64,000 bases of DNA from an uncultured Gammaproteobacteria bacterium (GTDB lineage Bacteria > Patescibacteriota > Microgenomatia > UBA8517), in contig CAZAXL010000001.1 in assembly GCA_964489145.1 (NCBI GenBank), positions 52,910-116,909 on the forward strand. Direction: 5' to 3'. The notes under the pieces are model-generated. The model was not told the DNA's origin, did no database searches, and worked only from the letters and a program-made list of their open reading frames with translations. Positions 17,388 through 62,499 of the stretch are shown one piece after another; the first letter of the stretch is position 1; each line of letters opens with the position of its first letter. Both the position numbers and the translations under genes were made by a program.

Positions 17388-18317
17388 CTACGACTTGACT
17401 AAGTCGATGATTATATCGAGCAGACGGGGATATGAAATACCCGCTGCTTTTGCCGCCTTGGGAAAAAGAGACATCGGCGTAAGTCCAGGTATTGTATTGA
17501 TTTCCAAAACAACAGGAATCCTGCCGTCCTTTAAAATAAAATCAACTCTTCCAAAGCCACGGCATCCGACAATCCTGTAAACTTCCAGCGCAATTTTCTG
17601 GATTTTTTCCGTAAGGGTTTTCGAAATTCTAGCCGGAACTATTTCTTCCGACCCGCTTTCGGCATATTTTGATTCATAATCAAAAAAGCTTCCTTTTAGG
17701 GGTTTAATTTCCACGACCGGAAGTGCTATCGGTTTATCGTTGCCTATAACAGCACAGGTAAACTCTCTTCCTTTTATATATTTATCCACTAAAATTCTGT
17801 TGTCATACTTAAACGCCAGGTTCATGGATTTTTTAAGCTCCTTTAAATTTTTTGCCGGCGAAACACCTATCGAGGAACCTCCCTCGACCGGTTTCACAAA
17901 GTAAGGCGGAGCACCCAATGTTTTATAAACACTTTGATATTTTTCACCCTTCTTTAAAAACACATATTCGGGAATGAGTACTTTATGAAAATTCATTAAC
18001 TCCCGGAAAACTTCCTTATCCATTCCAATGGCAGACGCAAGCACGCCCGAACCAACGTATGAAATACCCATTGCTTCAAGGAAACCCTGAATTTTTCCAT
18101 CCTCTCCATATTTTCCGTGAAGGGCTAAAAAGGCGACATCCGGATCAATTTTGACAATTTTATTTAGTCCTTTTCCGTCTTTCGAAATTACCAGAGGATA
18201 AGCCAGATATTTCTTCTTATTTAAGTTTTTTATAACTTCCTTGCCGGACACTATTGATACCTCATGTTCCGATGACTTGCCACCCATTAGTACTGCTATT
18301 TTTAGTTTCTTTTTCAT
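17388..18317 (-). CDS. ddl: D-alanine--D-alanine ligase
   Basis: 309 aa ATP-grasp fold with EINTIPGLTPMSLFPK C-terminal motif. 4-nt overlap with murI. Confidence 0.9.
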   Translation of the reverse strand: MKKKLKIAVLMGGKSSEHEVSIVSGKEVIKNLNKKKYLAYPLVISKDGKGLNKIVKIDPDVAFLALHGKYGEDGKIQGFLEAMGISYVGSGVLASAIGMDKEVFRELMNFHKVLIPEYVFLKKGEKYQSVYKTLGAPPYFVKPVEGGSSIGVSPAKNLKELKKSMNLAFKYDNRILVDKYIKGREFTCAVIGNDKPIALPVVEIKPLKGSFFDYESKYAESGSEEIVPARISKTLTEKIQKIALEVYRIVGCRGFGRVDFILKDGRIPVVLEINTIPGLTPMSLFPKAAKAAGISYPRLLDIIIDLVKS

Positions 18318-19126
18318 TTTGCCAGTTCTACAATTTTTAAATCATTTTTTATCTTTTTCCCCAGAAACATCTCCGCAACCTTTGTGAATCTATCCGTAAG
18401 ATCCGTAACATAGAAGTCAGCAGCTCCCTGTTTTTTTTGCCTGTTCAATAAATTATTTTTTTTAAAAAAATCAAAAACTTCTTTTGCGACAGATTTTCCG
18501 GGATTGATTAAGGTAACACCCTTACCCATTGTTTCACTAATAATATTTTTGATGATGGGGTAGTGAGTACAACCCATGATTAGGGTATCTACTTTTTGTT
18601 TCTTAAGTTCGGACAAATACCCTTTTGCAATAATCTTTAGCGCCTTACCCTCTATCTCCCCTTCTTCAATAAAAGGGACAAAGAGGGGGCACGCTTTTTC
18701 AATAACTTTTGCCCGGGACAAATTTTTGGAGATATTTTTAGCGTAGGCATGGCTCCCTACGGTTCCGTATGTCCCGATAACCCCGATCGAACGGGTGCCT
18801 CGCAAAACTTCATTGGAAGCCGAGCTTATCACCTCAAATATCGGAATTTTTGGAAAAGTACTTTTCAGGAAGTCCGCCGCAACTGCCGAAGATGTGTTAC
18901 AGGCAATTACTACCGCTTTAACATTCTCTCCTATTAAAAATCTGGTATTTTCTTCGGAAAATCGCTTAATTGTTTCTACTCCGCGCGGGCCGTAAGGAAC
19001 CCTGGCGGTATCGCCCAAATACACCAAGTTTTCGTGCGGTAAAATTTTGGTTAGTTCTTTAACTACCGTTAAGCCCCCAAGGCCCGAGTCAAAAACCCCG
19101 ATAGGCTTGCCTTGCTCCTTTTGCAT
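18314..19126 (-). CDS. murI: Glutamate racemase
   Basis: GVFDSGLGGLTV, ACNTSSA and GCTHYP motifs. Confidence 0.9.
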   Translation of the reverse strand: MQKEQGKPIGVFDSGLGGLTVVKELTKILPHENLVYLGDTARVPYGPRGVETIKRFSEENTRFLIGENVKAVVIACNTSSAVAADFLKSTFPKIPIFEVISSASNEVLRGTRSIGVIGTYGTVGSHAYAKNISKNLSRAKVIEKACPLFVPFIEEGEIEGKALKIIAKGYLSELKKQKVDTLIMGCTHYPIIKNIISETMGKGVTLINPGKSVAKEVFDFFKKNNLLNRQKKQGAADFYVTDLTDRFTKVAEMFLGKKIKNDLKIVELAK

Positions 19127-19144
19127 AAGGGTATTATATGATAA

Positions 19145-20194
19145 TTATGCCCGATAGCCTAAAAGCGCGGACTTAACCAAAACACAGACCGCGTCCTGCT
19201 CCCTTTTGGTAATTTGAATTCCAAGCGGCAAGTAAATTATTTTTTGTTTCCTGGACCAACCCGAATCATTCAACTCAAACCTGACAAAAAGACCGTTTGT
19301 TCTTAAAAACTTTAAAATCCAGCCGGCATATTCTTTGCCTAAAATTACGGGATAAGCGCGCAGGTTGGCCTTGTCTTTACTGGAAAGGTTTATTCTTACT
19401 GGGAAAAATTTTCCCAGTTCTTTTTCGTAATAGATAGCTTGACGTTTTTTAATGTCATGAACTTTTCCGATATTTATTCTGGAACTTAAAAGGTTTGGCA
19501 GGAAAGGTCCCCGCGCTGGCAGCATTGAATCCCCTATTGTGGAATACCCCTTTAGCATTAATCCTTCTGCGATTCGACCAAATCTTAACGACCAGGAGAG
19601 GACCATTAAAGCCCAAAGCAGACTAACTTTGATTGAATAAAAAAACGATTGGTAAAAAGGCGGCACCGAAAAATTCAAATCTTCAACTCTTCCGTAAATA
19701 TTCGATCCCTGTAGGGGAACCACCTTTCTCAGACTATCGATAATAAAATGGTCTTTTTTAAAAATTTTAATTTCTTCGGGATCGACAATTCTATGAACAG
19801 AGTCCTCTATCAGGATTGAGCTTCCAGTTATTTTTTTAAGCCACTTTGGGTCGTCCACCAAGTTGCTTTTTATCCCGACAGGATGAAATATTACGATCAC
19901 ACTTGGCTTAATCTGGTCGATTTTTGACTTAAAGGATTTTTTGTCTGCCGTCAGGTTAGTATTGATCTTGTAGTAAACCGGCTTGTAGCCATGAAGCCTG
20001 ATGTTATTCTCAACGTCGCCGCAAAAAAAATCGGGAAGTAAAACAAATGATCCTTTGGGTACTTGTTTCTTGAGTAGAATATCCCAGAAAGCATCCTCCC
20101 AGGAAAGATAGAACAAACGTTTAATGCCTTCGGCAAGTTTATTCTTTTTAAATTTAAAATAACGTAAACTTAGGATTGGCTGCGTTGATGTCAT
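19145..20194 (-). CDS. Divergent DegT/DnrJ/EryC1/StrS-like (fold-type I PLP aminotransferase-like) protein inserted between murI and murD. Function unknown; it may be catalytically degenerate.
   Basis: 349 aa. The segment order mirrors the DegT family: GSFVLLPDFFCGD...GYKPVYYKI (compare GDeVivPsfTF...GAkPVFvD), IKPSVIVIFHPVG (compare tkAIipVHlyG), SSILIEDSVHRI (compare viEDaAqa), then KDHFIIDSLRKVVPLQGSNIYG (candidate Lys region). Identity is low. Confidence 0.35.
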   Translation of the reverse strand: MTSTQPILSLRYFKFKKNKLAEGIKRLFYLSWEDAFWDILLKKQVPKGSFVLLPDFFCGDVENNIRLHGYKPVYYKINTNLTADKKSFKSKIDQIKPSVIVIFHPVGIKSNLVDDPKWLKKITGSSILIEDSVHRIVDPEEIKIFKKDHFIIDSLRKVVPLQGSNIYGRVEDLNFSVPPFYQSFFYSIKVSLLWALMVLSWSLRFGRIAEGLMLKGYSTIGDSMLPARGPFLPNLLSSRINIGKVHDIKKRQAIYYEKELGKFFPVRINLSSKDKANLRAYPVILGKEYAGWILKFLRTNGLFVRFELNDSGWSRKQKIIYLPLGIQITKREQDAVCVLVKSALLGYRA

Positions 20195-22531: not shown

Positions 22532-23709
22532 AAATAGCTTTTTCCTGCTCCCATTACCAAAATAACATCTCCCTGTTTAACTTCTTCCGATAACATTTTC
22601 TTAATTTTTTCAAAAGAATTAATCCCAATCGCGTTTTTGTTGCCGGTGGCACGGGCAACATCTTCCGGAGTTATCCCAAAAGTTTCACTGTCACGGGCTT
22701 TAAAAATCGGTCCAACTATAATTTTATCCGCCGCATTAAAAACTCCATCATATTTCGGAAGAAGTGTGTGGGTCCGCGCAAACCCGTGCGGTTCATCAAT
22801 TACCCAAATTCTTGATTCGGGAAATTCTTTTCTTAAACCTTCAATCGTTGTTTTTATGGCTGTCGGATGGTGAGCATAATCATCAAAAATCTTTACGCCA
22901 CCGCGATCCGCGATAAGCTCCATTCTCCTCCCGATTCCGGAAAAGCTCTCTAGGGATTTAACAATGGTCTCTTCGGCTATTCCCAACTTTTTACCCAAAA
23001 CATAAACCAAGTTTGCATTCTTTTGATTGTGTTCTCCAAAAATTTTTAAATTAAACTTTTCCCCAGGATTGTCTTTTTCCGTAATTAAAATTTTTTCTCC
23101 TTTAAGATTATTCACAAATTTTCTGAAAGCTTCCCGCACTTCCTCTTCGTTTTTGAAAAAATCGGGGTGGTCAAACTCAATATTGTTAATCACAATTATG
23201 TCGGGATGGTAATTTAGGAAATTATTATTAAATTCGTCTGCCTCGATTACAAAATATTCTCCTTTGCCGAACCTTGCATTTGCCTCCCATTCCGGTATTT
23301 TTGCGCCGACAACAACTGAGGGATCCAAACCTGCATCAACTAAAAGCTTACCTACCATTGCTGTTGTTGTGGACTTGCCGTGGGTGCCCGCAATGCAAAT
23401 TACTTTCTTACCCTCGGTTAAATATTTTCCGAGAAACTCCTGCCAAGTCATTACGATTTTTCTTTTTTCCGCCTCGACAAGCTCCGGATTTTCTTTATTT
23501 TGATAATAAATTGCAGGCGAAACTATAAGAAAGTCTATTCCTTCCAGGTGGTTTGGATCGTGTCCTTTAAAAAAATTCTTAGCATATGCGGTCTGCTCCT
23601 CCAGGTCACAGCCCGTAACCTCATAGCCCATTTTGGAGGCAAGGAGGGCGATGGCCGACATTCCACTCCCGCCGATTCCCATCATGTGGATCTTTTTTAA
23701 TTTATTCAT
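22501..23709 (-). CDS. murC: UDP-MurNAc--L-Ala ligase MurC
   Basis: N-terminal MMGIGGSGMSAIA Rossmann region, P-loop IAGTHGKSTTTAM. 8-nt overlap with the murE-fusion gene. Confidence 0.9.
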   Translation of the reverse strand: MNKLKKIHMMGIGGSGMSAIALLASKMGYEVTGCDLEEQTAYAKNFFKGHDPNHLEGIDFLIVSPAIYYQNKENPELVEAEKRKIVMTWQEFLGKYLTEGKKVICIAGTHGKSTTTAMVGKLLVDAGLDPSVVVGAKIPEWEANARFGKGEYFVIEADEFNNNFLNYHPDIIVINNIEFDHPDFFKNEEEVREAFRKFVNNLKGEKILITEKDNPGEKFNLKIFGEHNQKNANLVYVLGKKLGIAEETIVKSLESFSGIGRRMELIADRGGVKIFDDYAHHPTAIKTTIEGLRKEFPESRIWVIDEPHGFARTHTLLPKYDGVFNAADKIIVGPIFKARDSETFGITPEDVARATGNKNAIGINSFEKIKKMLSEEVKQGDVILVMGAGKSYLWAREIAELI

Positions 23710-25711
23710 TGAAAGTTCCCAATCTTTCTTCCATTTTTATCCTGGCTTTTTCCAATTCCTCAGGAGTATTTATTCCCTGCCATTCACTGTCATCCGGCAA
23801 AGTATAGGTTGCCATCCTCATCCCCTGATCAATTGCCATCTTAATTAAATCTACCAAATAGTATTCGCCCTGCTTGCTCTTTTTGACATTATTAATGTTT
23901 TTGGCAAACCAGCCTTTATCGAAAACATAAAGGCCGTCATTAACCTCTTTAATCTTCTTTTCCTCGGGCGTAGCATCTTTTTCTTCAACAATTTTTGTAA
24001 TAAGACCGTTTTTACCTCTGATAACCCTGCCAAGCCCGGTTGGGTTATTTTTCATAAGTGAGACAAATGTCAGTGCCCTTTGCCTCTCAAGGTGGGTCTT
24101 AATAATTTGCCTGATTGTTTCCGGCTTGTAAAAGGCACTGTCATCTCCGTTTATAACAATCAGTATTTTTGAAGAAGGGGGTATTTTTACAAAACCCGCT
24201 CTGGCCGCATCCGCAGTTCCTCCCTTGGGATTTTTCTGTATAGCAAGATCAATGGCACCTTTAATGTACCTTGCCACCTGATTCCTTTTAAAAGAAATCA
24301 CCGCGGTAACGCTTCCCACTCCTGCGGATCTTAAATTTTCCAATGTGTAGGCAATCATCGGCCGGCCACAAATTTTATGAATAACTTTAGGTAGAGTGGA
24401 TTTCATTCTCGTTCCTTTTCCAGCAGCCAGAATCACGGCAGATATGTCCTTACTTCTGCCCAGAAAGTTTTCAACTATTCCCTTGTCGCTCCAAGGGTGT
24501 TCGTAAGATCCGTATGCCATACTTTTTTCGTGGCCTTTTCCTAAAATTGCGACCGTGTCTTCTTTTTTACAAAGAGAAAGGGCATAGGCAATTGCTTCAC
24601 CACGCTCCGCAATTTTGAAAAAAGTTTTATCTTCTTTGGCGTTTGCACTTCTTGCTCCTTCCGACATTTTTGACAAGATGTCAAAGACATTCTCGCTTCT
24701 CGGATCCTCCGCGGTAAAAACGGAAACGTCGCTTAGCTTTGCCGAAATTTTGCCCATTTTAAATCTTTTTCTTGGGTCTCTTTCCCCTGCACACCCGAAG
24801 ACGGAAATAAGTTTTCCCCGAGTAGTCCCGCGAAGATGGGTCAATACCGCCTCAAGCGAATCCGGAGTATGCGCAAAATCTATAATAATGTTTGCGCCTA
24901 TGTTGTTTTTTATTTCGGCAAGTCTTCCTTCCGGCAGTCTAAAATCTTTAAGCGCTTTCAGGGCACTATTCCGTGAGATGCCAAATTTTTCGACCGCTGA
25001 GATAGCCGCCTCGACATTCAAATTATTGTATTTTCCCGGCAATACATTTATGGAGGTGTCTTTAGGAGAAATAACTTTCCATTTACAGGAATTTATAAAT
25101 GACTTTTTTACCCTTTTATACTCTTTGAAGGTTTTGTGATAATCCAAATGCTCCGGCGCTATATTGGTTAATACCCCAACGTCAAAGTGAACCCCGGCAA
25201 TTCTTTTTTGGTCGATCCCGTGAGAACTGACTTCGACAACTGCATATTCGTCCCCATCATCGACAAATTTCTTTAGGAATTTGTGCAAAGAAATTACATC
25301 AGGAGTTGTAACATGAAGGCCGGGTACTGAAATTGAGGATAAAATTCCAACTCTTTTTCCAAGGGAATTTAAGATGTGATAAATAATGTGCGCGGTCGTG
25401 GTTTTTCCTTTCGTTCCGGTAACCCCGATCACTTTAAGTTTTTCGGAAGGACGGCCAAACCAAACGGACGCAAGCTGCCCCAGGGCTTCACGGCTGTCCG
25501 TAACTTTAAGATAATTCCCGATTTTAATATCCTTTTCGCCCACCACCAGGGAAGCGCCGTTTTTGAAAGCGTCTTCAATGTAGTCGTGGCCGTCACGTCC
25601 GACGCCTCTGACGGCAACAAAAATATAGCCTTTTTCAACCTTTCTCGAGTCGTCGGTCAAACCTTTGTAACCGGAAAGCTTTCCGGTTAATTCCTCAAGA
25701 TTTTTGATCAT
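23702..25711 (-). CDS. murE: Fusion protein: MurE (UDP-MurNAc-dipeptide--diamino acid ligase, aa ~1-425) plus a C-terminal GlmU-type GlcNAc-1-P uridyltransferase domain (aa ~430-669). The GlmU LbH acetyltransferase domain is absent.
   Basis: N-part: Mur ligase P-loop VIGVTGTKGKTTTAHI and MurE organisation. C-part: ILAAGKGTRMKSTLPKVIHKICGRPMI, GLGRVIRGKNGLITKIVEEKDATPEEKKIKEVNDGLYVF and KQGEYYLVDLI align motif-for-motif with E. coli GlmU residues 1-230 (LAAGKGTRM, GYGRI..ENG.V..IVE.KDAT.EQ..I.EIN.G, AQGEYYITDII). Confidence 0.85.
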   Translation of the reverse strand: MIKNLEELTGKLSGYKGLTDDSRKVEKGYIFVAVRGVGRDGHDYIEDAFKNGASLVVGEKDIKIGNYLKVTDSREALGQLASVWFGRPSEKLKVIGVTGTKGKTTTAHIIYHILNSLGKRVGILSSISVPGLHVTTPDVISLHKFLKKFVDDGDEYAVVEVSSHGIDQKRIAGVHFDVGVLTNIAPEHLDYHKTFKEYKRVKKSFINSCKWKVISPKDTSINVLPGKYNNLNVEAAISAVEKFGISRNSALKALKDFRLPEGRLAEIKNNIGANIIIDFAHTPDSLEAVLTHLRGTTRGKLISVFGCAGERDPRKRFKMGKISAKLSDVSVFTAEDPRSENVFDILSKMSEGARSANAKEDKTFFKIAERGEAIAYALSLCKKEDTVAILGKGHEKSMAYGSYEHPWSDKGIVENFLGRSKDISAVILAAGKGTRMKSTLPKVIHKICGRPMIAYTLENLRSAGVGSVTAVISFKRNQVARYIKGAIDLAIQKNPKGGTADAARAGFVKIPPSSKILIVINGDDSAFYKPETIRQIIKTHLERQRALTFVSLMKNNPTGLGRVIRGKNGLITKIVEEKDATPEEKKIKEVNDGLYVFDKGWFAKNINNVKKSKQGEYYLVDLIKMAIDQGMRMATYTLPDDSEWQGINTPEELEKARIKMEERLGTFNE

Positions 25712-25774
25712 CTGTGGTATATTATATCAGCAATCGAGCCCGACTCCAATTGAGGCGAGGGCAGAATTATAACA

Positions 25775-26947
25775 ATGAGGGAACCCAAAAGAGTTTATCT
25801 GATCGATTTTGACAACACCCTTTTTGATACCGATGCCCTAAAAAGATCCATCTCCGAAAATTTCAAAAAAAGATTTAGCGATAAAAACTTATCCCTGTTT
25901 TGGAAAACTTACGCCGAATCAATTAAAGCTTTGAGGTATGTTGATATTAAAGAAATTTCCAAAGATTTACACAAAAAGTTCGGGGACGGTTCGGTAGAAG
26001 ATTTTGAGGACTTGTTTTTGAAAGCAGAGTTTAAAAAATTCGTTTTCAAGCACTCGGACAAACTAATAAAAACATTGAAAGATCGAGGGAAAGTAATTCT
26101 CTACTCCCTGGGTGATGCCCATTATCAACCCACCAAAATAAAAGGGAGCGGAATCGAAAAATTAATAGGCAAAAGCAATATTGTAATTCTGAAAAATAAA
26201 AAAACCGCAATCGGGGGTACAATTCTGAAATTCAAAGCGTCCGGCTATAACCAAATAATAATGGTGGATGATAGAGCCGATTTTCTGGAAAAAGCTAAAA
26301 GAGTTGATCCGGGCTGCATTACTGTCTGGTTCAGGTTTGGAAAATATAAGAATATTCTGCCAAAGGATAAAATGTCGATTGATTACGAAACGGATTCTTC
26401 CGAAAATCTTATTCATTATCTGAAAAATTTCGTAGGCATCTTGTCTCAAAGGAATATAAAAGAAAATATTTCTATATTAAGAGAAATTTCCAAGCCCCAA
26501 ATTGAACAACTAATTCACTCAACCGGCAAAGACAAATTGATCAAAAAATTTACACATGACAGGGAACGTTTCAGCTCATTCAAGGCCTTTATTTCCTGGA
26601 AAAAGCGTGGAAAAAAAATTTATGTAATGGTCGGGCGTAGAAATAAACTCCTCGGAATAATTTGGTTTAGCAGCAAAGCCGCACCGGCGAGTGTTTCCAA
26701 AGTTTTAAAGACATCTAATTGTGGCTACACTTTTGCGATAAGAAATTATCCTCCGGCCCGCCGCAAAGGACTTTCATCAAAATTTATGTATATTGTTTTT
26801 AAAGATTTTTGTGTATCCAATGAAAAAGGGGTCTGGCTTAGCACGGCGAAAGATAACATCCCTGCGAACAAACTTTATATAAACTACGGATTTAAGAAAA
26901 TTGCGGACTTGAAAGAAAACCGAATTATTTACACTTTTAGGGGTTAA
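25775..26947 (+). CDS. Two-domain protein: N-terminal HAD-superfamily hydrolase/phosphomutase-like domain fused to a C-terminal GNAT-fold acetyltransferase domain. It is the only plus-strand gene inside the dcw block, divergent from the murE-glmU fusion.
   Basis: HAD motif I LIDFDNTLFDT (DxDxT), motif II S in YSLGD, motif IV MVDDRADF. The C-terminal ~150 aa have GNAT-like beta-strand pattern and terminal ANKLYINYGFKKI. Confidence 0.55.
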   Translation: MREPKRVYLIDFDNTLFDTDALKRSISENFKKRFSDKNLSLFWKTYAESIKALRYVDIKEISKDLHKKFGDGSVEDFEDLFLKAEFKKFVFKHSDKLIKTLKDRGKVILYSLGDAHYQPTKIKGSGIEKLIGKSNIVILKNKKTAIGGTILKFKASGYNQIIMVDDRADFLEKAKRVDPGCITVWFRFGKYKNILPKDKMSIDYETDSSENLIHYLKNFVGILSQRNIKENISILREISKPQIEQLIHSTGKDKLIKKFTHDRERFSSFKAFISWKKRGKKIYVMVGRRNKLLGIIWFSSKAAPASVSKVLKTSNCGYTFAIRNYPPARRKGLSSKFMYIVFKDFCVSNEKGVWLSTAKDNIPANKLYINYGFKKIADLKENRIIYTFRG

Positions 26948-26965: not shown

Positions 26966-27289
26966 CTAAATTATCTCTGGAGTTACCTTCATTGCCGTAA
27001 ATGTTGGAGGAGCAGTTTTAGGATCTCCAATATACTCCGGGAATCCTGGAGCGGCTACAGCGTTTACCAGAATTTTTTCATCACCTTGGGCAATTAAAAG
27101 CGAATAGTGTACGCCATACCCTGCGCGAGGTTCCGGATAAACTAAAACTTCCGCTTTAGCTTCGGGGAATTTGTCTTTTACTTCTTTCCCTATTTTTGAC
27201 GTAGAATTACGGCAATTGTTTAGACCCGTCAAAGAATCGTTCTCCTGAAGAAGGCTTCTAATAAACTCACCCATGTTTTCCGTAGACAT
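26966..27289 (-). CDS. Hypothetical protein (107 aa)
   Basis: ORF in a clean gap between glmS and the HAD-GNAT gene. No recognisable motif. AT-rich upstream region with a 10-bp direct repeat TATATACT[A/G]T x2 (27321-27340). Confidence 0.35.
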   Translation of the reverse strand: MSTENMGEFIRSLLQENDSLTGLNNCRNSTSKIGKEVKDKFPEAKAEVLVYPEPRAGYGVHYSLLIAQGDEKILVNAVAAPGFPEYIGDPKTAPPTFTAMKVTPEII

Positions 27290-27369: not shown

Positions 27370-29145
27370 TTATTTAACAGTTACGGATTTGGCCAAATTT
27401 CTGGGTTTATCCGGATCAAGTCCTTTCTTTATTGTGAGGTAGTAGGCAAGAAGCTGAGCAACAACAACCTCGGGAATAATACTGGACTCCCCGGCATCGG
27501 AAACATGTATATAATAATCAAAAACCTCGTGAGGTTTATGAGAAATCCCGATAATATAGCCTCCTCTTGCCTTCATTTCCATGGCTCCGGCAAGATTTGA
27601 TCCGTAAGTCTCATCGTTGGGGAGAAAACTGATACACGGAGTACCTTTTTCAATCAAAGCAAGCGGGCCATGCTTAAGTTCGCCCGCGGCAAGGCCTTCG
27701 GCATGAATGTATGAAATTTCCTTAATTTTAAGTGCTGTTTCAAGGCTTGCCGGGTAAGAAAGCCCACGTCCGATTACATAGACATGTTTTTTGTCTACGA
27801 TGAGCGATGTAAGTTCTTTAATTTTTCTTAGAGATTTGGGGGATAATATCTGATTAACCGACTTAACTGCTGCCATCAGTGATTTTTGACCTTCTTTTAC
27901 TCCGCCGTTTAATGAATTGGCCAAAAGCACTAGGTGCGCAACCATGCCGGTAAAAGCCTTTGTTGACGCAACGGCCCTTTCCTGGCCGGCTCCAATCAGC
28001 ATCTTATAATCGGATAGTCTGTAAAGGGATGAACCGGGAACATTTACCAGACTTAGAATTTTCGCACCCTTATCTTTGGCTTTTTTAACCGATTCCAGAA
28101 TATCCATCGTTTCTCCGGACTGTGAAATTGCAATCACCAGACTATCTTTATTTAAGAAATCCAAACTGTAGCCAAACTCGCTGCCTATCGCAAAGTTTAC
28201 GTGCCGTTTTGCCAGTTTGGAAAACAAATAAGATCCCGCAAGACAGGCATATGAAGCCGTCCCGCAGCCTACCAAATAGGTTCCCCGCGCGTCTTTGATC
28301 TTTTTTGCTATTTCTTCAGCCTGAGAAGCTCCGGAAACGGCAATATCCGTAATAATTTGAGGCTGCTCAAAAATTTCTTTAAGCATGTAAAACTCATATT
28401 TTCCCTTTTCACCTTGTTCAATTTTCCAATCCAGCCTTTTTCTTTTAGGAGTAATCTCTTTGACGGTTTTTACATTCAAAATAGTAACCTTGCCGGGGGC
28501 AAGAACGGCCATTTCATTGTCTTCAAGAAAATAAACGTCTCTTGTGTAGGGAAGAAGTGCCGACGCGTCGCTTGCCAAAAAATTTTCATTCTTACCAAAC
28601 CCGATTACCAGAGGGGATCCGTTCCTGGCGGCTACCAGTAAGTTTTCCTTCGCGCTGACGGCTATCACGGCATTAAGCCCATCCATGCGGTTAAATGCCG
28701 CTCTTACCGCCTCAGCAAAGGGTTTGTCTTTGCTAAAATCCTCAAGGAGGTGCGTCAAAGTTTCCGTATCCGTTTCAGAAACAAATTTATGACCTTTCTT
28801 CAATAATCCCTTTTTTATCTCCTCATAATTTTCAAAAATCCCATTATGGATAACGGCAATGGTACCACTACAATCAAGGTGTGGGTGCGCGTTTGCGTCC
28901 GTCACGCCGCCGTGGGTTGCCCAGCGTGTATGGCCGAATGAAAGACTGCCCCCCGGCAAATCGTTGACATTGGCGTTTCCGATTTTACCAACTTTCTTCT
29001 TTATAACTATTGTGTTTTTACTTCCCTCGGGGATCACCCCAACTCCCCAACTGTCGTATCCGCGGTATTCAAGACTTTTCAAACCACTAAAAACCAGTTT
29101 CTGTCCGTCATTTCTATTACCAACATATCCAAATATTCCACACAT
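27370..29145 (-). CDS. glmS: Glutamine--fructose-6-phosphate aminotransferase (GlcN-6-P synthase)
   Basis: N-terminal MCGIFGYVG (Ntn Cys), two SIS domains, and C-terminal ...KPRNLAKSVTVK with catalytic Lys context. Confidence 0.95.
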   Translation of the reverse strand: MCGIFGYVGNRNDGQKLVFSGLKSLEYRGYDSWGVGVIPEGSKNTIVIKKKVGKIGNANVNDLPGGSLSFGHTRWATHGGVTDANAHPHLDCSGTIAVIHNGIFENYEEIKKGLLKKGHKFVSETDTETLTHLLEDFSKDKPFAEAVRAAFNRMDGLNAVIAVSAKENLLVAARNGSPLVIGFGKNENFLASDASALLPYTRDVYFLEDNEMAVLAPGKVTILNVKTVKEITPKRKRLDWKIEQGEKGKYEFYMLKEIFEQPQIITDIAVSGASQAEEIAKKIKDARGTYLVGCGTASYACLAGSYLFSKLAKRHVNFAIGSEFGYSLDFLNKDSLVIAISQSGETMDILESVKKAKDKGAKILSLVNVPGSSLYRLSDYKMLIGAGQERAVASTKAFTGMVAHLVLLANSLNGGVKEGQKSLMAAVKSVNQILSPKSLRKIKELTSLIVDKKHVYVIGRGLSYPASLETALKIKEISYIHAEGLAAGELKHGPLALIEKGTPCISFLPNDETYGSNLAGAMEMKARGGYIIGISHKPHEVFDYYIHVSDAGESSIIPEVVVAQLLAYYLTIKKGLDPDKPRNLAKSVTVK

Positions 29146-29150
29146 ATTTT

Positions 29151-30155
29151 TTAAAGACTATTCAAAATTGCCGCACGAAGTTTATCCGGATCATGACGTA
29201 TCATACTTCTGTTGAGAGCATCCCCTTTTTCTTTCTCCGGAATTTTATCGGAAAGGAGGTCTGTTCTGATTATTTTAACTCCATTACCAAAAATTTTAGT
29301 CTTTAAATCATCCTTTACAGGGAATGTGTTTTCAAGTGCATAAGCTTTAAGGGCGGGCTTTGGAAAATTATTGTTGCTGTTAACCAGGACTTTTTTCACA
29401 AGCCCAAGCGGCATATATTTTTTCAGGTCGGCAAAAAAGTCCGACAACGCATATCCCGGAGTCTCACTGCGTGAATTCATTAGATTGGCGATAAATAGAA
29501 TCTCTCCTTTGGATTTTTTTAAAGCATTTACGACACCGTCAACCACCAGGTTGGCAATTGTATTGGTATAAAAATCTCCCGGCCCGATAATTATGAGGTC
29601 TGCTTCCAAAATTGCTTTTTTTGCCTTGGAATTCAGCTTCACAGCCGGTAAAATCTTCAGATTCTTAATTCTGACTCCTGCACTTCTGGATATATCTATA
29701 TTGTGTTCGCCGACAGCCTCGGAACCGTCTTCATATTTAGCCATTAATCTGGCATTGTCATAGCTAATCGGAATAATATCTCCTTTTACCTGTAAAAGAC
29801 GGCAGGTTTCTTCTATTCCTCTTTTTTGCGAACCCATTATGTCAGCCATTGCAGCCATAAATAGATTCCCAAAAGTCATTCCGTCCAGACCCGCTCCCCC
29901 TTTACTGTAGCGGTATGTGAACAATTTTCTCAAAACGGTTTTATTTTCGGATAGAGCAACTATTGCCTGTCTAATGCCTGATGTCGGAAGCAAACCAAAT
30001 TCGTCGCGGATTATTCGGTTTGAACCTCCGTCATCCACCATCGTCATCAACATCGTAATGTGAACAGGAGCACGGCTTAATCCTGAAGCAACAACATACG
30101 AACCTGTCCCTCCTCCAATAATAACAACGTGGGGAATTTTACTCATTCTTTTCAA
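29151..30155 (-). CDS. YvcK/CofD-family (UPF0052, gluconeogenesis-factor/CuvA-like) protein
   Basis: VVIIGGGTGSYV, MVDDGGSNRIIR, IIIGPGDFYTNTIANL motifs. Sits between glmS and murA. Confidence 0.8.
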   Translation of the reverse strand: MKRMSKIPHVVIIGGGTGSYVVASGLSRAPVHITMLMTMVDDGGSNRIIRDEFGLLPTSGIRQAIVALSENKTVLRKLFTYRYSKGGAGLDGMTFGNLFMAAMADIMGSQKRGIEETCRLLQVKGDIIPISYDNARLMAKYEDGSEAVGEHNIDISRSAGVRIKNLKILPAVKLNSKAKKAILEADLIIIGPGDFYTNTIANLVVDGVVNALKKSKGEILFIANLMNSRSETPGYALSDFFADLKKYMPLGLVKKVLVNSNNNFPKPALKAYALENTFPVKDDLKTKIFGNGVKIIRTDLLSDKIPEKEKGDALNRSMIRHDPDKLRAAILNSL

Positions 30156-31395
30156 AAATCTCCGCTCCTAGCAAACGAAGTCTTTGTCCAATATTTTCAT
30201 AGCCCCTGGCAACAACCTCTATATTTTCTATTTCACTTCTGCCCGAAGCCGCAAGAGCAGCTAAAATTACCGAAATGCCGGCTCTTATGTCTTTACAAAA
30301 AAGCCTGTCACTCATAAGTGGCGTCGGGCCGCTGACTATAACCCTATGGGGGTCAGCAATAAATATTTTCGCACCCATCGAAATAAGATCATCCACAAAA
30401 AACATTCTCCATTCATACATCCAGTCGTGGCAGACAACGGTGCCTTTAGTCTGCGTTGCAAGAACAATGAAAGGGCTCATTAAATCAGTCGGAAAACCGG
30501 GCCATGGTCTTGTCTGAAACTTTCCACGAGTAGAAACCAGTTTGGAAGGCAGTACCGTAAGAGAATTTTCTCCGGATTTATAATTCACACCCATATAGCC
30601 CAAGTAATTTAGCATCATGGGGTACTGCCTGGAATCGAAGTCTTCTATTTCTATTTTTCCGCCGGTTATTGCCGAGGCTATCGCAAAAGTGCCGCCCTCA
30701 ATATGATCCGGGCAGACTCTGTGCTCAACTCCGTGCAGTTTGCCACCTCTGATTTTTAAGACATTAGATCCTATGCCTGAAATGTCCGCGCCCATTTTGG
30801 AAAGCATTTTTGCCAAATCCAGAACATGCGGTTCCGTTGCGGCATCGTCAATCGTTATACCGTCAGGCAGAGAGGATGCCATTATAAGCCCCATTTCTGT
30901 AGCCGTAACGGATGGCTCATCCAAAAAAATGTCAGGGGACACTTTTTTCTTCCAGTTCAAAAAATATCTCCCGTCAGTGCGCTTAATTTCCACTCCCATC
31001 TTTTGCATCATGGCAAAGTGGGTATCAAGAAGTCTTTCCCCGATCTGGTCTCCTCCGGGAGGAGTTACAATTGCCTTCCCAAACCGAACCAAAAGAGGTG
31101 CGGCTAAAACCACGGAAGCCCTGAATTTTGCAGACAAATCAGGATCCGGATCAAAAGAATCTAAACCTTGAGGATCAATTGTTACTTCATGATCGCGTTT
31201 TGTAACCTTAACTCCAAGCTTTGAAACAAGGTCAAGCATTACTGAAACATCGGAAATTTCAGGCACATTAGTTAAGGTCGTGGGGGAATCGGCAAGAAGT
31301 GCGGCGGGAATTAACTTCAAAGCCGAGTTTTTATTACCGGAAAGCTTAATTTTTCCCTCAAGCTTGTTGCCGCCGACTATTATAAATTTCGACAT
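30139..31395 (-). CDS. murA: UDP-GlcNAc 1-carboxyvinyltransferase MurA
   Basis: N-terminal FIIVGGNKLEGKIKLSGNKNSALKLIPAALLAD and two-domain inside-out alpha/beta EPT fold. Confidence 0.9.
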   Translation of the reverse strand: MSKFIIVGGNKLEGKIKLSGNKNSALKLIPAALLADSPTTLTNVPEISDVSVMLDLVSKLGVKVTKRDHEVTIDPQGLDSFDPDPDLSAKFRASVVLAAPLLVRFGKAIVTPPGGDQIGERLLDTHFAMMQKMGVEIKRTDGRYFLNWKKKVSPDIFLDEPSVTATEMGLIMASSLPDGITIDDAATEPHVLDLAKMLSKMGADISGIGSNVLKIRGGKLHGVEHRVCPDHIEGGTFAIASAITGGKIEIEDFDSRQYPMMLNYLGYMGVNYKSGENSLTVLPSKLVSTRGKFQTRPWPGFPTDLMSPFIVLATQTKGTVVCHDWMYEWRMFFVDDLISMGAKIFIADPHRVIVSGPTPLMSDRLFCKDIRAGISVILAALAASGRSEIENIEVVARGYENIGQRLRLLGAEIFEKNE

Positions 31396-43859: not shown

Positions 43860-45848
43860 TCATAATCCAATTTTTATCTCCTTGTCGGTTGTCAGCTTAA
43901 ATTCCTCGGAATGCTTGCCAAGGTTCACTGTATACAAAAATCCGTCTGTACCCGGCTGTTTCTGTAAAAAGAGTTTATATTCTTTGCCGACTTTGAAAGG
44001 CAGCTTATATTTAAATGTGACTTTGGCAACCCCCTCAGGACGAAGCTGGAAAAAACCCGCGAATACTGTTTTTCCCAAATCTTCATAGGGTTCTGCCGTT
44101 GACTCCAATCCCTCAGCGGCAATAAGCTCGCTCCCTTTGGGAACATAAACTCTTACCCAGGTGGGCAGAACCGAGTTCAGCCAGCCGTCCTGTTTTTCGG
44201 GATTTTGGTATGTTATTGTGACCGTTTTTGTCACACTTCCGTCCCCGGCGACTTGAATATCCTGTTCGACATTTTCATAAGCATAAAGGTTGGATTTTCT
44301 ACCTCCAAGGTTTGCATCATTTATATGCAAATAGTCTCCGTCATAATTTTTTATCGTTCCGCTCAATCCAAAATCTGCAACGGCTTTTTGGACATTGTCA
44401 TCCAATAAATAGAAAAGGACATGCTTTTCCATTAAAGATTTAAATCCTGCCTGCAGGAGACCCGGGATTTTGTCCTTTGGCTGACCCATGGAGTTTGCCA
44501 AAATCGAATTCATTAAGGGCCCTATTATTTTCTTTCTGTTGTCGGAGTTCGGAGGCCTCTGAATAATTTTTCCGGTTATGGGATCCCAAATGACAGGGCC
44601 CTCGACATCGGCAAAGGCTTCGAGTTCGTGAATCACCTGGGCACAATTACATTCGGGGGACACCTCCGTACTGAAATTTCCGAACCCTGGTACCCCGATC
44701 GGCCCTATGACGTCCAGTATATTTACCAAAATTTGTGTGTCAACCGCAATTACGCCGTCAATGTCTCCCACCCCGGCCTTCTCGGCCGCGGGAACCACAA
44801 TTTTCATGCTTTCGACAAAGTCCGGCGACCAGTTCATATCCCTCAATCTCCATTTCTTCGACAAAATGTAAGGCCCTTTTATGTATTTAATGATCGGGTT
44901 AGGTGCGTCTACGGAAGATTTATAAACCGCATCAAGAGCATAAATATCATTGCTTGTGACAGTGCTCACCTTTGCCTTATCGACTTTCAAGATAGCATAA
45001 GCCGTCATAAACCCTCCGGTGGGCCTCAATTCCTTGTCATTTTGAAACAAGAGAAGATAGGTTCTTGGAGAGTCCATACCCAAAAGATACTGGGCAGACT
45101 CCAGGAAAGGCTTTCCGTTAACCAGAAATGTCGATGTTTCATTTACCGTGTCTACAATACTTTTAATTTGCGCCCTGACGGCTTTTCCCTGGACTTTCTC
45201 GGGATACCTGTTCGGGTTTATTTGTGAGATTTCGCCCTGAACCGTTTTCATTTTTCCTGAAATTGTATCGATTTGGGGAATGAGATCCGGAATTGTCTTG
45301 GCAATAAAGTCAATTCTATCCTCAGCGGTCTCTTCTCCTGTTTTTGCCCCCAAAACATTCTGGCCGCCGGCAAAGCCAAGCAAATCCGCATATGGTTCAA
45401 TTACCGTTAGAAGTGATTCCCCGACATCAAGTCCTGCCTGTCCCGCAGCAATCGCATGGCTTCCGTCGGCAATGTAGGCACCGATAAACGGTAAAAATTT
45501 TTCCCAGGCTACCAGTTTATATGTACCCGAAACGCTATTTAATAATTTTTTCGTGTTGCCCACTTCCGCCTTTATCTTCGCAAGATCCTGCGATTTGGCT
45601 GCTTGAGACAAAGTTTTGGCACCATTTACCAGTTTGGTTGTTTTTTGATAAATCAGAAGTCCCGATATAACATTGTAAACTAAGAGGACTGCGGCTGCCA
45701 ATAGGATCCATAGGGTTATTTTTACCCACACTTTCCTGGGCTTTACGGGATTTATTATTTCTTTAGCCTGTTTCTCCGGAGCAGGTTTTTGCACTATGTC
45801 ATTTTCGGCGACATTGATTTTCGGAACCAATATCGAGTCATTTTCCAT
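43860..45848 (-). CDS. Large membrane-anchored extracytoplasmic protein, DUF4012-like. First recognisable gene downstream of the glycan locus.
   Basis: 662 aa with a single N-terminal TM (WVKITLWILLAAAVLLVYNV) and a large soluble domain. The architecture resembles the DUF4012 family often found next to LCP/polysaccharide genes; the family call is from memory of domain organisation. Confidence 0.45.
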   Translation of the reverse strand: MENDSILVPKINVAENDIVQKPAPEKQAKEIINPVKPRKVWVKITLWILLAAAVLLVYNVISGLLIYQKTTKLVNGAKTLSQAAKSQDLAKIKAEVGNTKKLLNSVSGTYKLVAWEKFLPFIGAYIADGSHAIAAGQAGLDVGESLLTVIEPYADLLGFAGGQNVLGAKTGEETAEDRIDFIAKTIPDLIPQIDTISGKMKTVQGEISQINPNRYPEKVQGKAVRAQIKSIVDTVNETSTFLVNGKPFLESAQYLLGMDSPRTYLLLFQNDKELRPTGGFMTAYAILKVDKAKVSTVTSNDIYALDAVYKSSVDAPNPIIKYIKGPYILSKKWRLRDMNWSPDFVESMKIVVPAAEKAGVGDIDGVIAVDTQILVNILDVIGPIGVPGFGNFSTEVSPECNCAQVIHELEAFADVEGPVIWDPITGKIIQRPPNSDNRKKIIGPLMNSILANSMGQPKDKIPGLLQAGFKSLMEKHVLFYLLDDNVQKAVADFGLSGTIKNYDGDYLHINDANLGGRKSNLYAYENVEQDIQVAGDGSVTKTVTITYQNPEKQDGWLNSVLPTWVRVYVPKGSELIAAEGLESTAEPYEDLGKTVFAGFFQLRPEGVAKVTFKYKLPFKVGKEYKLFLQKQPGTDGFLYTVNLGKHSEEFKLTTDKEIKIGL

Positions 45849-45867
45849 GCATTAATAATACAACAAA

Positions 45868-46518
45868 TCAGACGGCTCCGACACCGCTAATCATTGCGAT
45901 TGGGGTTCTCAGGATAATGGCCAAGTCCATTAAGAGTGATTTCTTTCTGGCATAGTCCGCATCCATTTTTATTCTCTTGTCGAAATTGATATTGCTTCTC
46001 CCGGTTACCTGCCAAAAGCCGGTGATGCCCGGTTTTACCGTTTGAGTCTCTTTTACGTACGGCTCCGTCCCGGGATATCTTTTTTGCTGCTCGGCAAGCT
46101 CATCGGCATGATACGGACGGGGTCCTACTATACTCATCTCACCCTTTAAAACATTTAAAAATTGGGGCATTTCATCGATGGAATATTTTCTGATAAATTT
46201 TCCGAACCTGGTCACGCGTGGGTCCTCATGAAGTTTAAAACTGGACTTTTTATATTCGCTGTAAAGTTTTTTGAATCTGGGATCTTTTGTTAAAAGATAA
46301 TCGGCATTAACTGCCATCGAACGGAATTTGTAAAGCCTGAAAATTCTTCCCCCCCTGCCAATTCTTTTCATATGAATATTTGATTTTTCAACCAGGATAG
46401 GCCCGGAAGAAGTTAGTTTGATTACAAGAGCGGTAACAAGCATTAATGGAGAAAAAAGAACCAAAAGAAATATTGATAAGACAATATCCATACCTCTTTT
46501 AACAATTTCGTATAACAT
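45868..46518 (-). CDS. Initiating polyprenyl-phosphate sugar-1-phosphate transferase (bacterial sugar transferase, small PglC/WcaJ-C-domain type)
   Basis: KRGMDIVLS...FSPL N-terminus, KFRSM, DEMPQFLNVLKGEMSIVGPRP catalytic block. Confidence 0.85.
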   Translation of the reverse strand: MLYEIVKRGMDIVLSIFLLVLFSPLMLVTALVIKLTSSGPILVEKSNIHMKRIGRGGRIFRLYKFRSMAVNADYLLTKDPRFKKLYSEYKKSSFKLHEDPRVTRFGKFIRKYSIDEMPQFLNVLKGEMSIVGPRPYHADELAEQQKRYPGTEPYVKETQTVKPGITGFWQVTGRSNINFDKRIKMDADYARKKSLLMDLAIILRTPIAMISGVGAV

Positions 46519-46522
46519 ATTT

Positions 46523-47677
46523 TCAAAGAAGATTTACATTCTTTTCTTCTTTAAGTTGTTCCACAACTTTTTTGACGGATTGCGCGTGACTCTTGGAGCA
46601 AACCAAAAGCGCGTCTTTTGTATCAACCACTACGATGTTATCAAGGCCTACTACGGCAATCATTCTACCGTCGGAGTGTACCAGGGCATCGGTCGTGTCG
46701 ATGGTTAACACTTCTCCGCCGGGTTCATCCCCTGAAATTATTACATTGCTTTTATTGTCTTTTTTGGAATTCGCCCAAACTTCTCTCCAATCCCCTATAT
46801 CCGTCCAAAAAAAGTCGCCGGCGACAGCCAGGAAGTTCTTTTCCCTCTCGCTTATCGCATAATCAACGGATATCGCAGGCATTTTTTTATACTCGGATGC
46901 CATGACTCTTGCTTCATCGGCTTTGCCTATATGCGGCTTGATATCCTGAAGATTCTTATAGATTCCCGGCTGATGTTTTTTAAAAGAATTCAAAAGATCA
47001 TCCGCTCTCCACACGTATTGGCCCGCATTCCAAAGATATTTTCCGGATGCCGTATACTCCTTGGCCAGTTCAATGGGGGGCTTTTCGACAAATCCGTCCA
47101 GTTTATAAAAATCCACGTTTCCCTTTACCCTAACCTTATCTCCTTTTTTGATGTGTCCCAGACCCGTATGGGGATATCTTGGTTCAACCCCCATAGCAAT
47201 AAGCACATGCTTTTCATAAGCTTCTTTTGCTGCCCGGACTAAAGTTTCCAAATATCTTGAAATCGGCTTGACCACCCTGTCTGCCGCCTCGGTCATAATA
47301 ACCGCGTCGGGATCTTTTGATTCAATAAAGAGGGCGCCAAGTGCATGAGCCGGCCCTGTTTCGCGCCTGACCGGTTCGACAATAACATTTTCGGGGTGAA
47401 GCCTTGGATTTTCCCTGAGAACTTCTTTCTTATATTCCGGTGAAACTGTGACAATAAAGATTTTCTCCCAGGGAAGAATTTCAGCAAAACGTTTTACAGC
47501 AACCTGGGTTAAGGTTTGGTTATCAAAAAGTTTTAAAAATTGTTTTGGGGTTTTCTGTCTGGACCTGGGCCAAAGTCTTGTTCCACCACCGCCCGCTAAA
47601 ATCAATGCATAAAGATGATCTTTGTAGTTGCCGTTTTCCACTTTTTGTATTTTAGACAAAAATCCGAAAACTTTCAT
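46523..47677 (-). CDS. manC: Mannose-1-phosphate guanylyltransferase (GDP-mannose pyrophosphorylase)
   Basis: ALILAGGGGTRLWPRSRQKTPKQFL nucleotidyltransferase motif and left-handed helix C-terminal part. No PMI cupin domain. Confidence 0.8.
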   Translation of the reverse strand: MKVFGFLSKIQKVENGNYKDHLYALILAGGGGTRLWPRSRQKTPKQFLKLFDNQTLTQVAVKRFAEILPWEKIFIVTVSPEYKKEVLRENPRLHPENVIVEPVRRETGPAHALGALFIESKDPDAVIMTEAADRVVKPISRYLETLVRAAKEAYEKHVLIAMGVEPRYPHTGLGHIKKGDKVRVKGNVDFYKLDGFVEKPPIELAKEYTASGKYLWNAGQYVWRADDLLNSFKKHQPGIYKNLQDIKPHIGKADEARVMASEYKKMPAISVDYAISEREKNFLAVAGDFFWTDIGDWREVWANSKKDNKSNVIISGDEPGGEVLTIDTTDALVHSDGRMIAVVGLDNIVVVDTKDALLVCSKSHAQSVKKVVEQLKEEKNVNLL

Positions 47678-47683
47678 TAGCTA

Positions 47684-49877: not shown

Positions 49878-49884
49878 AAATTTT

Positions 49885-51943: not shown

Positions 51944-51945
51944 AG

Positions 51946-56834: not shown

Positions 56835-56889
56835 ATTACTAATTCTAAATTTAAAATTGGGATTTTAATTAAAATTTTTAATTTATAAT

Positions 56890-59081: not shown

Positions 59082-59085
59082 TTTA

Positions 59086-62221: not shown

Positions 62222-62499
62222 GTTAGAGAAAGAAAACGTTTTAACCTATTTTTTAAATATCTTCTTCCCATACCCGATTTTAAATACTTTTCTCTAGCAA
62301 ATCCATCAAGCTTGTTAAGACAAGCTTCATAATATATCAACTCAAATGGACCTCTACCTTTTGTGTAAGTGGATTTGTCATTTTGATGCTCAATAAAACG
62401 TTTTCGTAGATTATTTGTACAACCAATGTACCATTTACTAGACTTTAGACTTCTCAAAACGTAAACGTATTGGTATTTGAGTTCTCTAACGTGATACAT
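62218..62499 (-). CDS. Small stand-alone GIY-YIG nuclease-domain protein (UPF0213/YhbQ-like)
   Basis: 93 aa: YQYVYVLRSLKSSKWYIGCTNNLRKRFIEHQN (GIY...YIG-type with conserved R and E) ... N at the end of the core. Overlaps both flanking genes (4 nt and 14 nt). Confidence 0.75.
   Translation of the reverse strand: MYHVRELKYQYVYVLRSLKSSKWYIGCTNNLRKRFIEHQNDKSTYTKGRGPFELIYYEACLNKLDGFAREKYLKSGMGRRYLKNRLKRFLSLT

Follow-up and report, generated by a model that had tools for sequence, protein, structure and literature searches.

A gene that joins a HAD domain to a GNAT acetyltransferase domain is located within the division and cell wall (dcw) block of a 64,000-nucleotide stretch of contig CAZAXL010000001.1 (positions 52,910 to 116,909; hereafter, the window), which comes from an assembly labeled as an uncultured Gammaproteobacteria bacterium and placed by GTDB among the Patescibacteriota (Microgenomatia; UBA8517). 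The genomic context of this gene, together with the fusions in which its domains take part, suggests that the encoded protein, here termed HAD-GNAT, may be a bifunctional enzyme of UDP-N-acetylglucosamine (UDP-GlcNAc) synthesis which works with the adjoining uridylyltransferase (UT), that is, with a GlmU domain that lacks the left-handed beta-helix (LbH) acetyltransferase. A probability of about 40% is given to this reading. The functional tie of HAD-GNAT to the LbH-less UT and to glmS is, for its part, well supported by synteny, fusions and gene linkage in Parcubacteria.

In the proposed route, two reactions would be carried out: (i) the GNAT domain would use acetyl-CoA for the N-acetylation of a glucosamine intermediate, be it glucosamine 6-phosphate (GlcN-6-P), GlcN-1-P or UDP-GlcN; and (ii) the HAD domain would transfer the phosphoryl group on the same hexosamine phosphate and deliver the sugar-1-phosphate for the UT, conceivably standing in for GlmM as a 6-to-1 phosphomutase with a 1,6-bisphosphate intermediate, like beta-PGM and PMM. 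To judge from the gene context, the replacement of the lost LbH half of GlmU by the GNAT domain has a slightly better than even chance of being correct, while the assignment of the GlmM step to the HAD domain is a tentative one, possible but on the doubtful side. Whereas the domains, motifs, selection, linkage and fusions described below are direct observations, we infer the substrates, the order of the steps and the choice between mutase and phosphatase chemistry.

Genomic evidence for the functional tie

The gene divergent from HAD-GNAT encodes, as the initial annotation had proposed, a fusion of MurE with the N-terminal domain of GlmU. This UT is a genuine N-terminal domain of GlmU (E 1e-60), in which the GlmU models cover positions 2-240 only, without any hexapeptide (LbH) part, and in which the key residues G14, R18, K25, G81, T82, D105, G140, E154, N169 and N227 are kept (E. 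coli numbering). We take the domain to be of the GlmU type and not of the UAP1/NagU type; UTs of the GlmU type require a sugar-1-phosphate. In Pfam and NCBIfam searches, Hexapep (LbH) is absent from both the MurE-UT fusion and the HAD-GNAT protein.

With respect to the intermediate steps, the dcw block encodes the enzyme of the first step (GlmS), the UT of the last step, YvcK and every Mur enzyme; genes for a mutase and for an LbH acetyltransferase are both lacking. The absence of glmM and of the GlmU LbH domain, as originally noted for the locus, holds for the whole window. No alpha-phosphohexomutase was found in the window and 38 further loci (667 kb; 546 kb non-redundant), where the best tblastn match reaches an E-value of 2.5; the GlmM probe recovers the GlmM proteins of the PDB at E 2e-116 and PMM/PGM proteins at 1e-37. 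The only LbH protein in the window resembles WcaF and maltose or exopolysaccharide O-acetyltransferases and lies in a glycosylation cluster, so its candidacy as a split-off C-terminal domain of GlmU was rejected. Both the lack of an LbH part in the partner UT and the WcaF-like nature of this sole LbH protein support the view of the GNAT domain as the acetyltransferase. Moreover, neither the scanned open reading frames (ORFs) of the window nor those related loci that were annotated revealed a kinase, whether APH, GHMP or of another kind. The most economical reading assigns one of the missing reactions to each domain. Elsewhere, bacteria with only the N-terminal domain of GlmU have been taken to imply "an unidentified acetyltransferase," and alternative uridylyltransferases exist (bioRxiv 10.64898/2026.06.23.733835).

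The pairing of both genes is conserved. HAD-GNAT is divergent from murE-UT in every recovered locus, for homologues ranging from 100% down to 39% identity; at 39% identity (L011 and L012), the surrounding genes are reshuffled to the order MurA, HAD-GNAT, MurE-UT, YvcK, NUDIX-GNAT and GlmS, and the divergent pair is kept. The window itself comes from a member of Candidatus Woesebacteria with a tiny genome. The closest genome is that of a Candidatus Woesebacteria UBA8517 member (94% identity for HAD-GNAT), and a 92%-identical copy is found on contigs of 754-770 kb, a length that matches a nearly complete genome of the Candidate Phyla Radiation (CPR). The same domains are also found in other fusion proteins: (i) UT-HAD-GNAT, in one chain of 626 aa (P0040); (ii) UT-HAD, in three proteins of 460-480 aa (P0169-P0171); and (iii) GNAT-HAD, in reversed order (P0132). 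Since the HAD and GNAT domains are fused to UTs, the link is to the uridylyltransferase and not to MurE.

A further line of evidence comes from HAD proteins that stand alone. The HAD half belongs to a subfamily named here after the Protein Data Bank entry 2P11, which comprises 273 clusters, mostly from Parcubacteria. In Magasanikbacteria, the stand-alone HAD gene lies directly upstream of a gene for a 250-aa UT without LbH (the two genes overlap in L038), and in Moraniibacteriota it lies directly upstream of glmS; in both groups YvcK is close by. In a metagenome-assembled genome (MAG) labeled "Eubacteriales," the HAD gene abuts yvcK. The Magasanikbacterial operon has the order TrmB, HAD, UT, Tdh-like, Kbl, POR subunits (in some loci), YniC-like HAD, GlmS, YvcK and a small GNAT, with genes for FBPase or PFK, aldolase and GAPDH upstream of it. 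Several of its products have clear PDB matches: the Tdh-like dehydrogenase (2DFV, E 7e-52), Kbl (3TQX, E 7e-167) and the YniC-like HAD (1TE2, E 2e-41). Tdh plus Kbl, as well as POR, produce acetyl-CoA and, in consequence, the operon looks as if geared to the supply of an N-acetylated amino sugar. Instances of the operon are found at 9255-17656 of L038, at 9062-20416 of L025 and on a JGI 3300072015 contig; the small GNAT measures 110-119 aa.

Sequence and structure of HAD-GNAT

The HAD-GNAT gene is real and under purifying selection, with dN/dS values (vs three orthologues) of 0.09-0.17 in both gene halves. Its Pfam scores are marginal: the HAD half matches PF00702 over residues 6-168 (E 6.8e-5; its 23.8 bits fall short of the gathering score of 26.4) and the GNAT half matches PF00583 over residues 266-373 (E 3e-4, 21.5 bits, barely above the gathering score of 20.7). 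Despite these scores, both assignments are secure because of the family profile and the predicted structure. A profile of 17 HAD-GNAT fusion sequences (alignment A1) matches 2P11 at E 5.7e-18 over residues 6-192 and many GNATs over residues ~270-380, and the AF2 model (pLDDT 91.4, pTM 0.88) yields HAD-fold and GNAT-fold matches. The union of both domains in one gene, as first read from the sequence, is thereby borne out by ORF, profile and fold.

The HAD half belongs to the HAD superfamily and, within it, to an uncharacterised C1-cap subfamily that includes 2P11. It has a DxDx(T/V) motif I, motifs II-IV and a Rossmannoid core. Motif I is part of the sequence LIDFDNTLFDT (residues 9-19) and contains the nucleophile Asp and the Asp+2 acid/base (D11-x-D13-N-T15); D11-F-D13-N-T15 is invariant in the 17 fusion sequences. 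Motif II (S/T111), motif III (K142) and motif IV (D165-D166) are conserved both in A1 and in an alignment of 16 sequences from the broad HAD family (A3), in which D11, D13, N14, Q118, K121, K142 and D166 are invariant. The subfamily carries a signature after motif II, S/T-x-G-[DE]-x-x-[YF]-Q-x-x-K, which can be aligned in 2P11; its Q118 and K121 do not vary in the CPR members, remote stand-alone ones included, and are present in 2P11 as well. By comparison, K23 and K88 of the cap are conserved within the fusion family (A1 only). These four residues (Q118, K121, K23 and K88) may form a distal phosphate site, for which they are candidates only.

In the AF2 model, a helical cap (helices 19-102) sits between strands 6-11 and 106-112, i.e., between motifs I and II, and hence it is of the C1 type and not of the C2 type found in PMM (HAD-IIB), which is inserted between motifs II and III. 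The best Foldseek match of the HAD half is 2P11 (E 6e-14, target-normalised TM 0.80), followed by L-2-haloacid dehalogenases, NANP and assorted C1-cap phosphatases. The HAD half has no family-level match to beta-PGM (TIGR01990/TIGR02009 type), and NCBIfam returns nothing for the HAD-GNAT protein beyond a 17-bit HAD-IB match. In tblastn searches, a PMM2 sequence found no match, and a Lactococcus beta-PGM sequence matched another HAD of L032 and not the 2P11-like family. That locus, from a Magasanikbacterium, has two tandem beta-PGM/YniC-like HAD-IA genes between glmS and yvcK (18143-19451), one of which matches the Lactococcus beta-PGM at E 9e-19.

The GNAT half has the superfamily fold and the acetyl-CoA motif A (consensus Q/R-x-x-G-x-G/A), here R329-x-x-G332-x-S334, which is invariant in the family. 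Among its nearest solved relatives are protein acetyltransferases (HP0935, RimL/RimJ, Naa50) as well as enzymes of the aminoglycoside, polyamine and PseH types; no specific relationship to GNA1 was found beyond the common GNAT fold. The domain is generic, and the structural matches give its superfamily and no substrate assignment. A peptidoglycan-modifying enzyme of the FemX (FemABX) type, which the initial annotation had named as an alternative, was discarded, since the protein has one GNAT domain of ~160 aa instead of two in tandem and PF02388 (FemAB) gives no match at E ≤ 0.01.

Neighboring genes in the window

The dcw block spans 9.6-36.9 kb and is bounded by a tRNA ligase of the glycine/histidine type. 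Its order is mraZ, rsmH, a small ftsL-like ORF, ftsI, murA, yvcK/glmR, glmS, orf107, HAD-GNAT, murE-UT, murF, murB, murD, orf349, murI, ddl, murC, mraY, ftsW, murG, a ftsQ-like ORF, ftsA and ftsZ. Of the genes called between ftsZ (9629) and the tRNA ligase (36890), only HAD-GNAT is on the plus strand, in agreement with its earlier description as the only opposite-strand gene of the block. A divergent promoter region of 63 bp had also been proposed: a spacer of this length does exist between the start codons, but a consensus sigma-70 scan of it gives no full -35/-10 pair above threshold. By eye, the minus strand of the spacer contains two TGnTATAAT elements, TGTTATAAT and TGATATAAT, which may function as promoters, and the plus strand contains AT-rich hexamers similar to a -10 element. 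The coordinates of the main features are given in Table 1.

Table 1. Location of HAD-GNAT, its domains and the related features of the window.
Feature	Position	Strand	Description
HAD-GNAT fusion gene	25775-26947	+	ATG start, 390 aa; ORF and translation
HAD domain	25775-26440	+	Residues 1-222; A1/A3 invariant columns, 2P11 profile and Foldseek matches
GNAT domain	26459-26944	+	Residues 229-390; acetyl-CoA motif A, conserved N-terminal FTHDxERF element
Divergent spacer	25712-25774		63 bp between start codons; read from sequence
MurE-UT fusion gene	23702-25711	-	669 aa; MurE plus GlmU N-terminal uridylyltransferase
MurE ligase part	24467-25711	-	TIGR01085 murE, E 2.7e-123; Pfam Mur_ligase, Mur_ligase_M, Mur_ligase_C
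GlmU-type UT domain	23705-24457	-	C-terminal in the MurE fusion; GlmU equivalog models, E 1e-60
orf107	26966-27289	-	107 aa, convergent with HAD-GNAT; no family match
GlmS	27370-29145	-	First pathway step, forms GlcN-6-P; TIGR01135 glmS, E 3e-184
YvcK/GlmR-type protein	29151-30155	-	Binds UDP-GlcNAc; TIGR01826, E 1e-70
MurA	30139-31395	-	First consumer of UDP-GlcNAc; Pfam EPSP_synthase, E 3e-63
LbH protein	56229-56834		Sole LbH protein of the window; WcaF-like O-acetyltransferase in glycosylation cluster

Two genes of the block have no family assignment. The stop codon of orf107 is separated by 18 bp from that of HAD-GNAT; orf107 is present at 74-100% identity in close relatives only (L001-L007, L015 and L016) and absent from L008-L011. 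In turn, orf349 (349 aa, 19145-20194, minus strand) is located between murD and murI, is found at 65-100% identity in L001-L008, and matches no sequence or family in Pfam, NCBIfam or the PDB. In related clusters its position is taken by alanine racemase (L009 and L036) or MurL (L010), and since the dcw block of the window has no Alr, orf349 may take the place of a missing enzyme of wall-precursor synthesis to which it is not homologous. It was also considered as a hidden kinase for a bypass with a phosphatase and a kinase; it has no database match and by eye is not kinase-like. With no APH or GHMP kinase among the scanned ORFs of the window and the annotated related loci, this bypass is unsupported there.

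Further observations concern the wider surroundings. A surface-glycan cluster (43860-63850) encodes DUF4012, a Bac_transf priming transferase, ManC, several GT4/GT2 glycosyltransferases, Wzy_C, three PMT_2 proteins and the WcaF-like LbH O-acetyltransferase. Fusions of wall-precursor enzymes are unusually frequent in these dcw clusters of CPR bacteria, with MurE-UT, MurF-MurB, MurB plus a Mur ligase, and UT-MurF among them (23702-25711 of the window; L009 3657-5966; L010 3868-6069; L011 1-808; L037 10001-12043). In L011 (4211-5026, minus strand) and L012 (3362-4177, minus strand), a 271-aa fusion of NUDIX and GNAT domains separates yvcK from glmS and constitutes a second GNAT there; it is reminiscent of the Nudix gene yvcI, which adjoins yvcK in B. 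subtilis. Finally, the MAGs of L010/L017 (DATJGY010000035.1), L018, L019, L022 and L034 are labeled Alphaproteobacteria, Gammaproteobacteria, Pseudomonadales or Micavibrio; mislabeled or chimeric bins are suggested by L010/L017 and L034, whose genes and gene order are Microgenomates- and Parcubacteria-like.

Comparison with known systems

HAD-GNAT would act like GlmU plus GlmM while being a member of neither family, nor is it a beta-PGM, PMM, GNA1, FemABX or LbH protein. As in GlmU, the triple fusion P0040 joins acetyl and uridylyl transfer in one chain, but here a GNAT takes the place of the LbH acetyltransferase and a HAD domain is added; in the window, moreover, the UT forms one protein with MurE, and a separate divergent gene encodes the putative acetyltransferase. 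As regards GlmM, the reaction would be identical if the HAD domain is a mutase, but the folds are unrelated: GlmM is a four-domain phosphoserine enzyme, whereas HAD enzymes use a phospho-aspartate.

The initial annotation had proposed a eukaryote-like route of replacement. What stands of this proposal is the tie to the LbH-less UT and glmS, seen in synteny, fusions and Parcubacterial linkage, and not its eukaryote-like framing. On that basis, it is reasonable to read HAD-GNAT as a replacement for the missing acetyltransferase and perhaps for the mutase. The eukaryotic route (GNA1, AGM1/PGM3 and UAP1) likewise uses an acetylating enzyme of the GNAT fold, and acetylation before the mutase step is a possible order here as well; the window GNAT has, however, the fold of GNA1 named in the proposal only in a generic sense, without specific similarity to it, and the window UT is GlmU-type. 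Besides, eukaryotes use AGM1 for the mutase step, which is an alpha-phosphohexomutase and not a HAD enzyme.

HAD phosphomutases work on sugar phosphates through an aspartyl-phosphate. The HAD half shares with them (beta-PGM and PMM) the DxDxT pair and the Mg-binding DD motif and, with beta-PGM, the C1 helical cap. The differences are the following: beta-PGM has an S-K-N distal phosphate site vs G-D/E-x-x-Y/F-Q-x-x-K after motif II here, and PMM has a C2 cap instead of a C1 cap. With this cap and with 2P11 as its nearest relative, the HAD domain is not like beta-PGM or PMM, the HAD mutases named in the initial annotation. We know of no HAD mutase for hexosamine phosphates, and no paper was found in the literature on HAD-GNAT, on a HAD-type replacement of GlmM, or on the status of GlmM in Woesebacteria or CPR.

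The closest solved relative of the HAD half, 2P11 (BXE_B1342 of Burkholderia xenovorans, a putative HAD hydrolase), shares the sequence SxGDxxFQPxKIxxSG, but it is a stand-alone protein with ~22% identity from a non-CPR organism, and it offers no functional clue. On the other hand, HAD phosphatases act before sugar nucleotidyltransferases in several pathways: GmhB with HddC/HldE, KdsC with KdsB, NANP with NeuA, and MupP with AmgK plus MurU. In these systems, too, the HAD is genetically coupled, and sometimes fused, to the activating nucleotidyltransferase, and NANP is among the fold matches of the HAD half. They differ in that they need a kinase or activate a free sugar, whereas no kinase is found in the HAD-GNAT loci.

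Alternative explanations

Several observations weigh against a bifunctional role of HAD-GNAT in UDP-GlcNAc synthesis. Regarding the HAD half, it has no specific similarity to known HAD mutases, its best match being the uncharacterised 2P11, and beta-PGM is absent among its best 50 Foldseek matches; Burkholderia, the genus from which 2P11 comes, has canonical GlmM and GlmU. In addition, ManC (46523-47677) makes GDP-mannose and needs mannose-1-phosphate, so the genome requires some phosphohexomutase activity. Since a sugar-phosphatase HAD of the YniC type accompanies the 2P11-like HAD in the Parcubacterial operons, more than one HAD role is possible there. Regarding the fusions, P0040 is a singleton on a 5.6-kb contig, and P0169 has its nucleophile Asp replaced by Gly (FGIDNT; P0170 and P0171 keep DxDNT) on a 13-kb contig which also has an NTP_transferase plus LbH gene (L013 851-2242, 9221-10242). 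Fusions of Mur ligases with UTs also occur without HAD-GNAT within 10 kb (MurE-UT in L036, UT-MurF in L037, both from other Microgenomates), and HAD-GNAT was rejected as an obligate neighbor of all such fusions. Regarding the GNAT half, BLASTP detects no similarity between it and the small GNAT encoded in the Parcubacterial operon, whose orthology was rejected; this weakens arguments based on orthology and is consistent with an independent recruitment of GNATs. Stand-alone relatives of the GNAT half are numerous, and the two contexts examined (L018 and L020) have neither UDP-GlcNAc nor Mur-ligase genes. Their neighbors (integrase, type IV secretion system-like ATPase, tRNA ligase and DD-carboxypeptidase) are uninformative, the D-Ala-D-Ala carboxypeptidase of L018 being the sole wall-related one.

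In the main rival explanation, which is rather unlikely but not remote, the GNAT would replace the acetyltransferase alone, a canonical GlmM would be encoded elsewhere in the genome and the HAD would be a hydrolytic phosphatase. The hydrolase might serve as (i) an overflow valve for hexosamine 6-phosphate; (ii) a 6-phosphatase on a kinase-made 1,6-bisphosphate, following the logic of GmhB; (iii) a 6-phosphatase that feeds an anomeric kinase, following that of MupP/AmgK/MurU; or (iv) an inorganic pyrophosphatase that pulls the UT reaction, like the HAD BT2127. The DxD motif suits phosphatases as well as mutases, the structural neighbors of the HAD half are phosphatases, dehalogenases and NANP and not mutases, and the YniC-like enzyme, a sugar-6-phosphate phosphatase, shows that hydrolytic HADs occur in such modules. 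The precedents of GmhB, KdsC, NANP and MupP, and the pairing of a GNA1-type GNAT with the HAD phosphatase YqaB in engineered GlcNAc producers, are also counted in its favor, and UT-HAD fusions would fit a pyrophosphatase. Yet a pyrophosphatase leaves unexplained the fusion to a GNAT and the tight pairing with glmS in Moraniibacteriota; no kinase was found in the window and the conserved neighborhoods; and the 667 kb of such loci, which do not amount to a whole genome, contain no alpha-phosphohexomutase. A plain 6-phosphatase joined to an acetyltransferase would, furthermore, destroy an intermediate of the pathway. Because of this waste, the fusion or translational coupling to the UT, the adjacency to glmS and the lack of a nearby kinase, a mutase is the best single guess for the HAD domain.

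HAD-GNAT might also be placed off the main route and modify or regulate something nearby, which appears improbable. In such a case, it would acetylate a peptidoglycan precursor, another amino sugar of a wall polymer, or a protein (GlmS, YvcK or MurE-UT), while the HAD domain would act on a phosphorylated precursor or regulator. This would agree with the range of substrates of the nearest solved GNATs (protein, aminoglycoside, polyamine and PseH-type acetyltransferases), with the association with the UDP-GlcNAc-binding regulator YvcK/GlmR, which reaches the "Eubacteriales" MAG, and with the Mur-ligase/UT fusions that have no HAD-GNAT. Nonetheless, the fusion to UTs and the translational coupling in Parcubacteria point to consecutive metabolic steps and not to regulation, the protein is not FemABX-like, and an acetyltransferase would still be missing in these loci. 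Least probable of all is that an unrelated housekeeping or detoxification enzyme (a generic N-acetyltransferase plus phosphatase) was inserted once into an ancestral dcw block and passively inherited. The fusion family is small enough for this (21 clusters when grouped at 90% identity and ~30 representatives when grouped at 50%, with 3 hits among 185,579 species representatives), the source annotations of its members are generic (e.g., "FMN phosphatase YigB / RimI-like"), and the Pfam scores are marginal, but passive inheritance does not account for the exact divergent pairing retained through rearrangement at 39% identity, for independent UT fusions in other arrangements, or for the fact that HADs standing alone are linked to UT and glmS in a different class of CPR bacteria. 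The favored interpretation of HAD-GNAT remains that of a bifunctional enzyme which takes part in UDP-GlcNAc synthesis together with the adjoining UT.

Implications

The synthesis of UDP-GlcNAc via GlmS, GlmM and GlmU is regarded as universal and essential in wall-bearing bacteria and is an antibiotic target. The locus described here provides a concrete candidate, within the CPR, for the missing acetyltransferase of the above-mentioned preprint. If only the GNAT part of the proposal is true, it would represent a clean case in which a non-orthologous domain has taken over from one half of an essential enzyme with two functions. The recurrent linkage of the HAD subfamily to glmS and to a short UT makes it, in turn, a candidate non-homologous GlmM; if true, this would be the first HAD-type mutase for hexosamine phosphates, would give a function to the structural-genomics family of 2P11, and would oblige a revision of how complete the peptidoglycan pathway is judged to be in thousands of CPR genomes. 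In its broadest and still unlikely form, the proposal would be that many CPR/Patescibacteria make UDP-GlcNAc without GlmM and without the acetyltransferase of GlmU, by means of a 2P11-like HAD mutase and of GNATs recruited at least twice independently, with the fusion of Woesebacteria feeding the MurE-fused UT.

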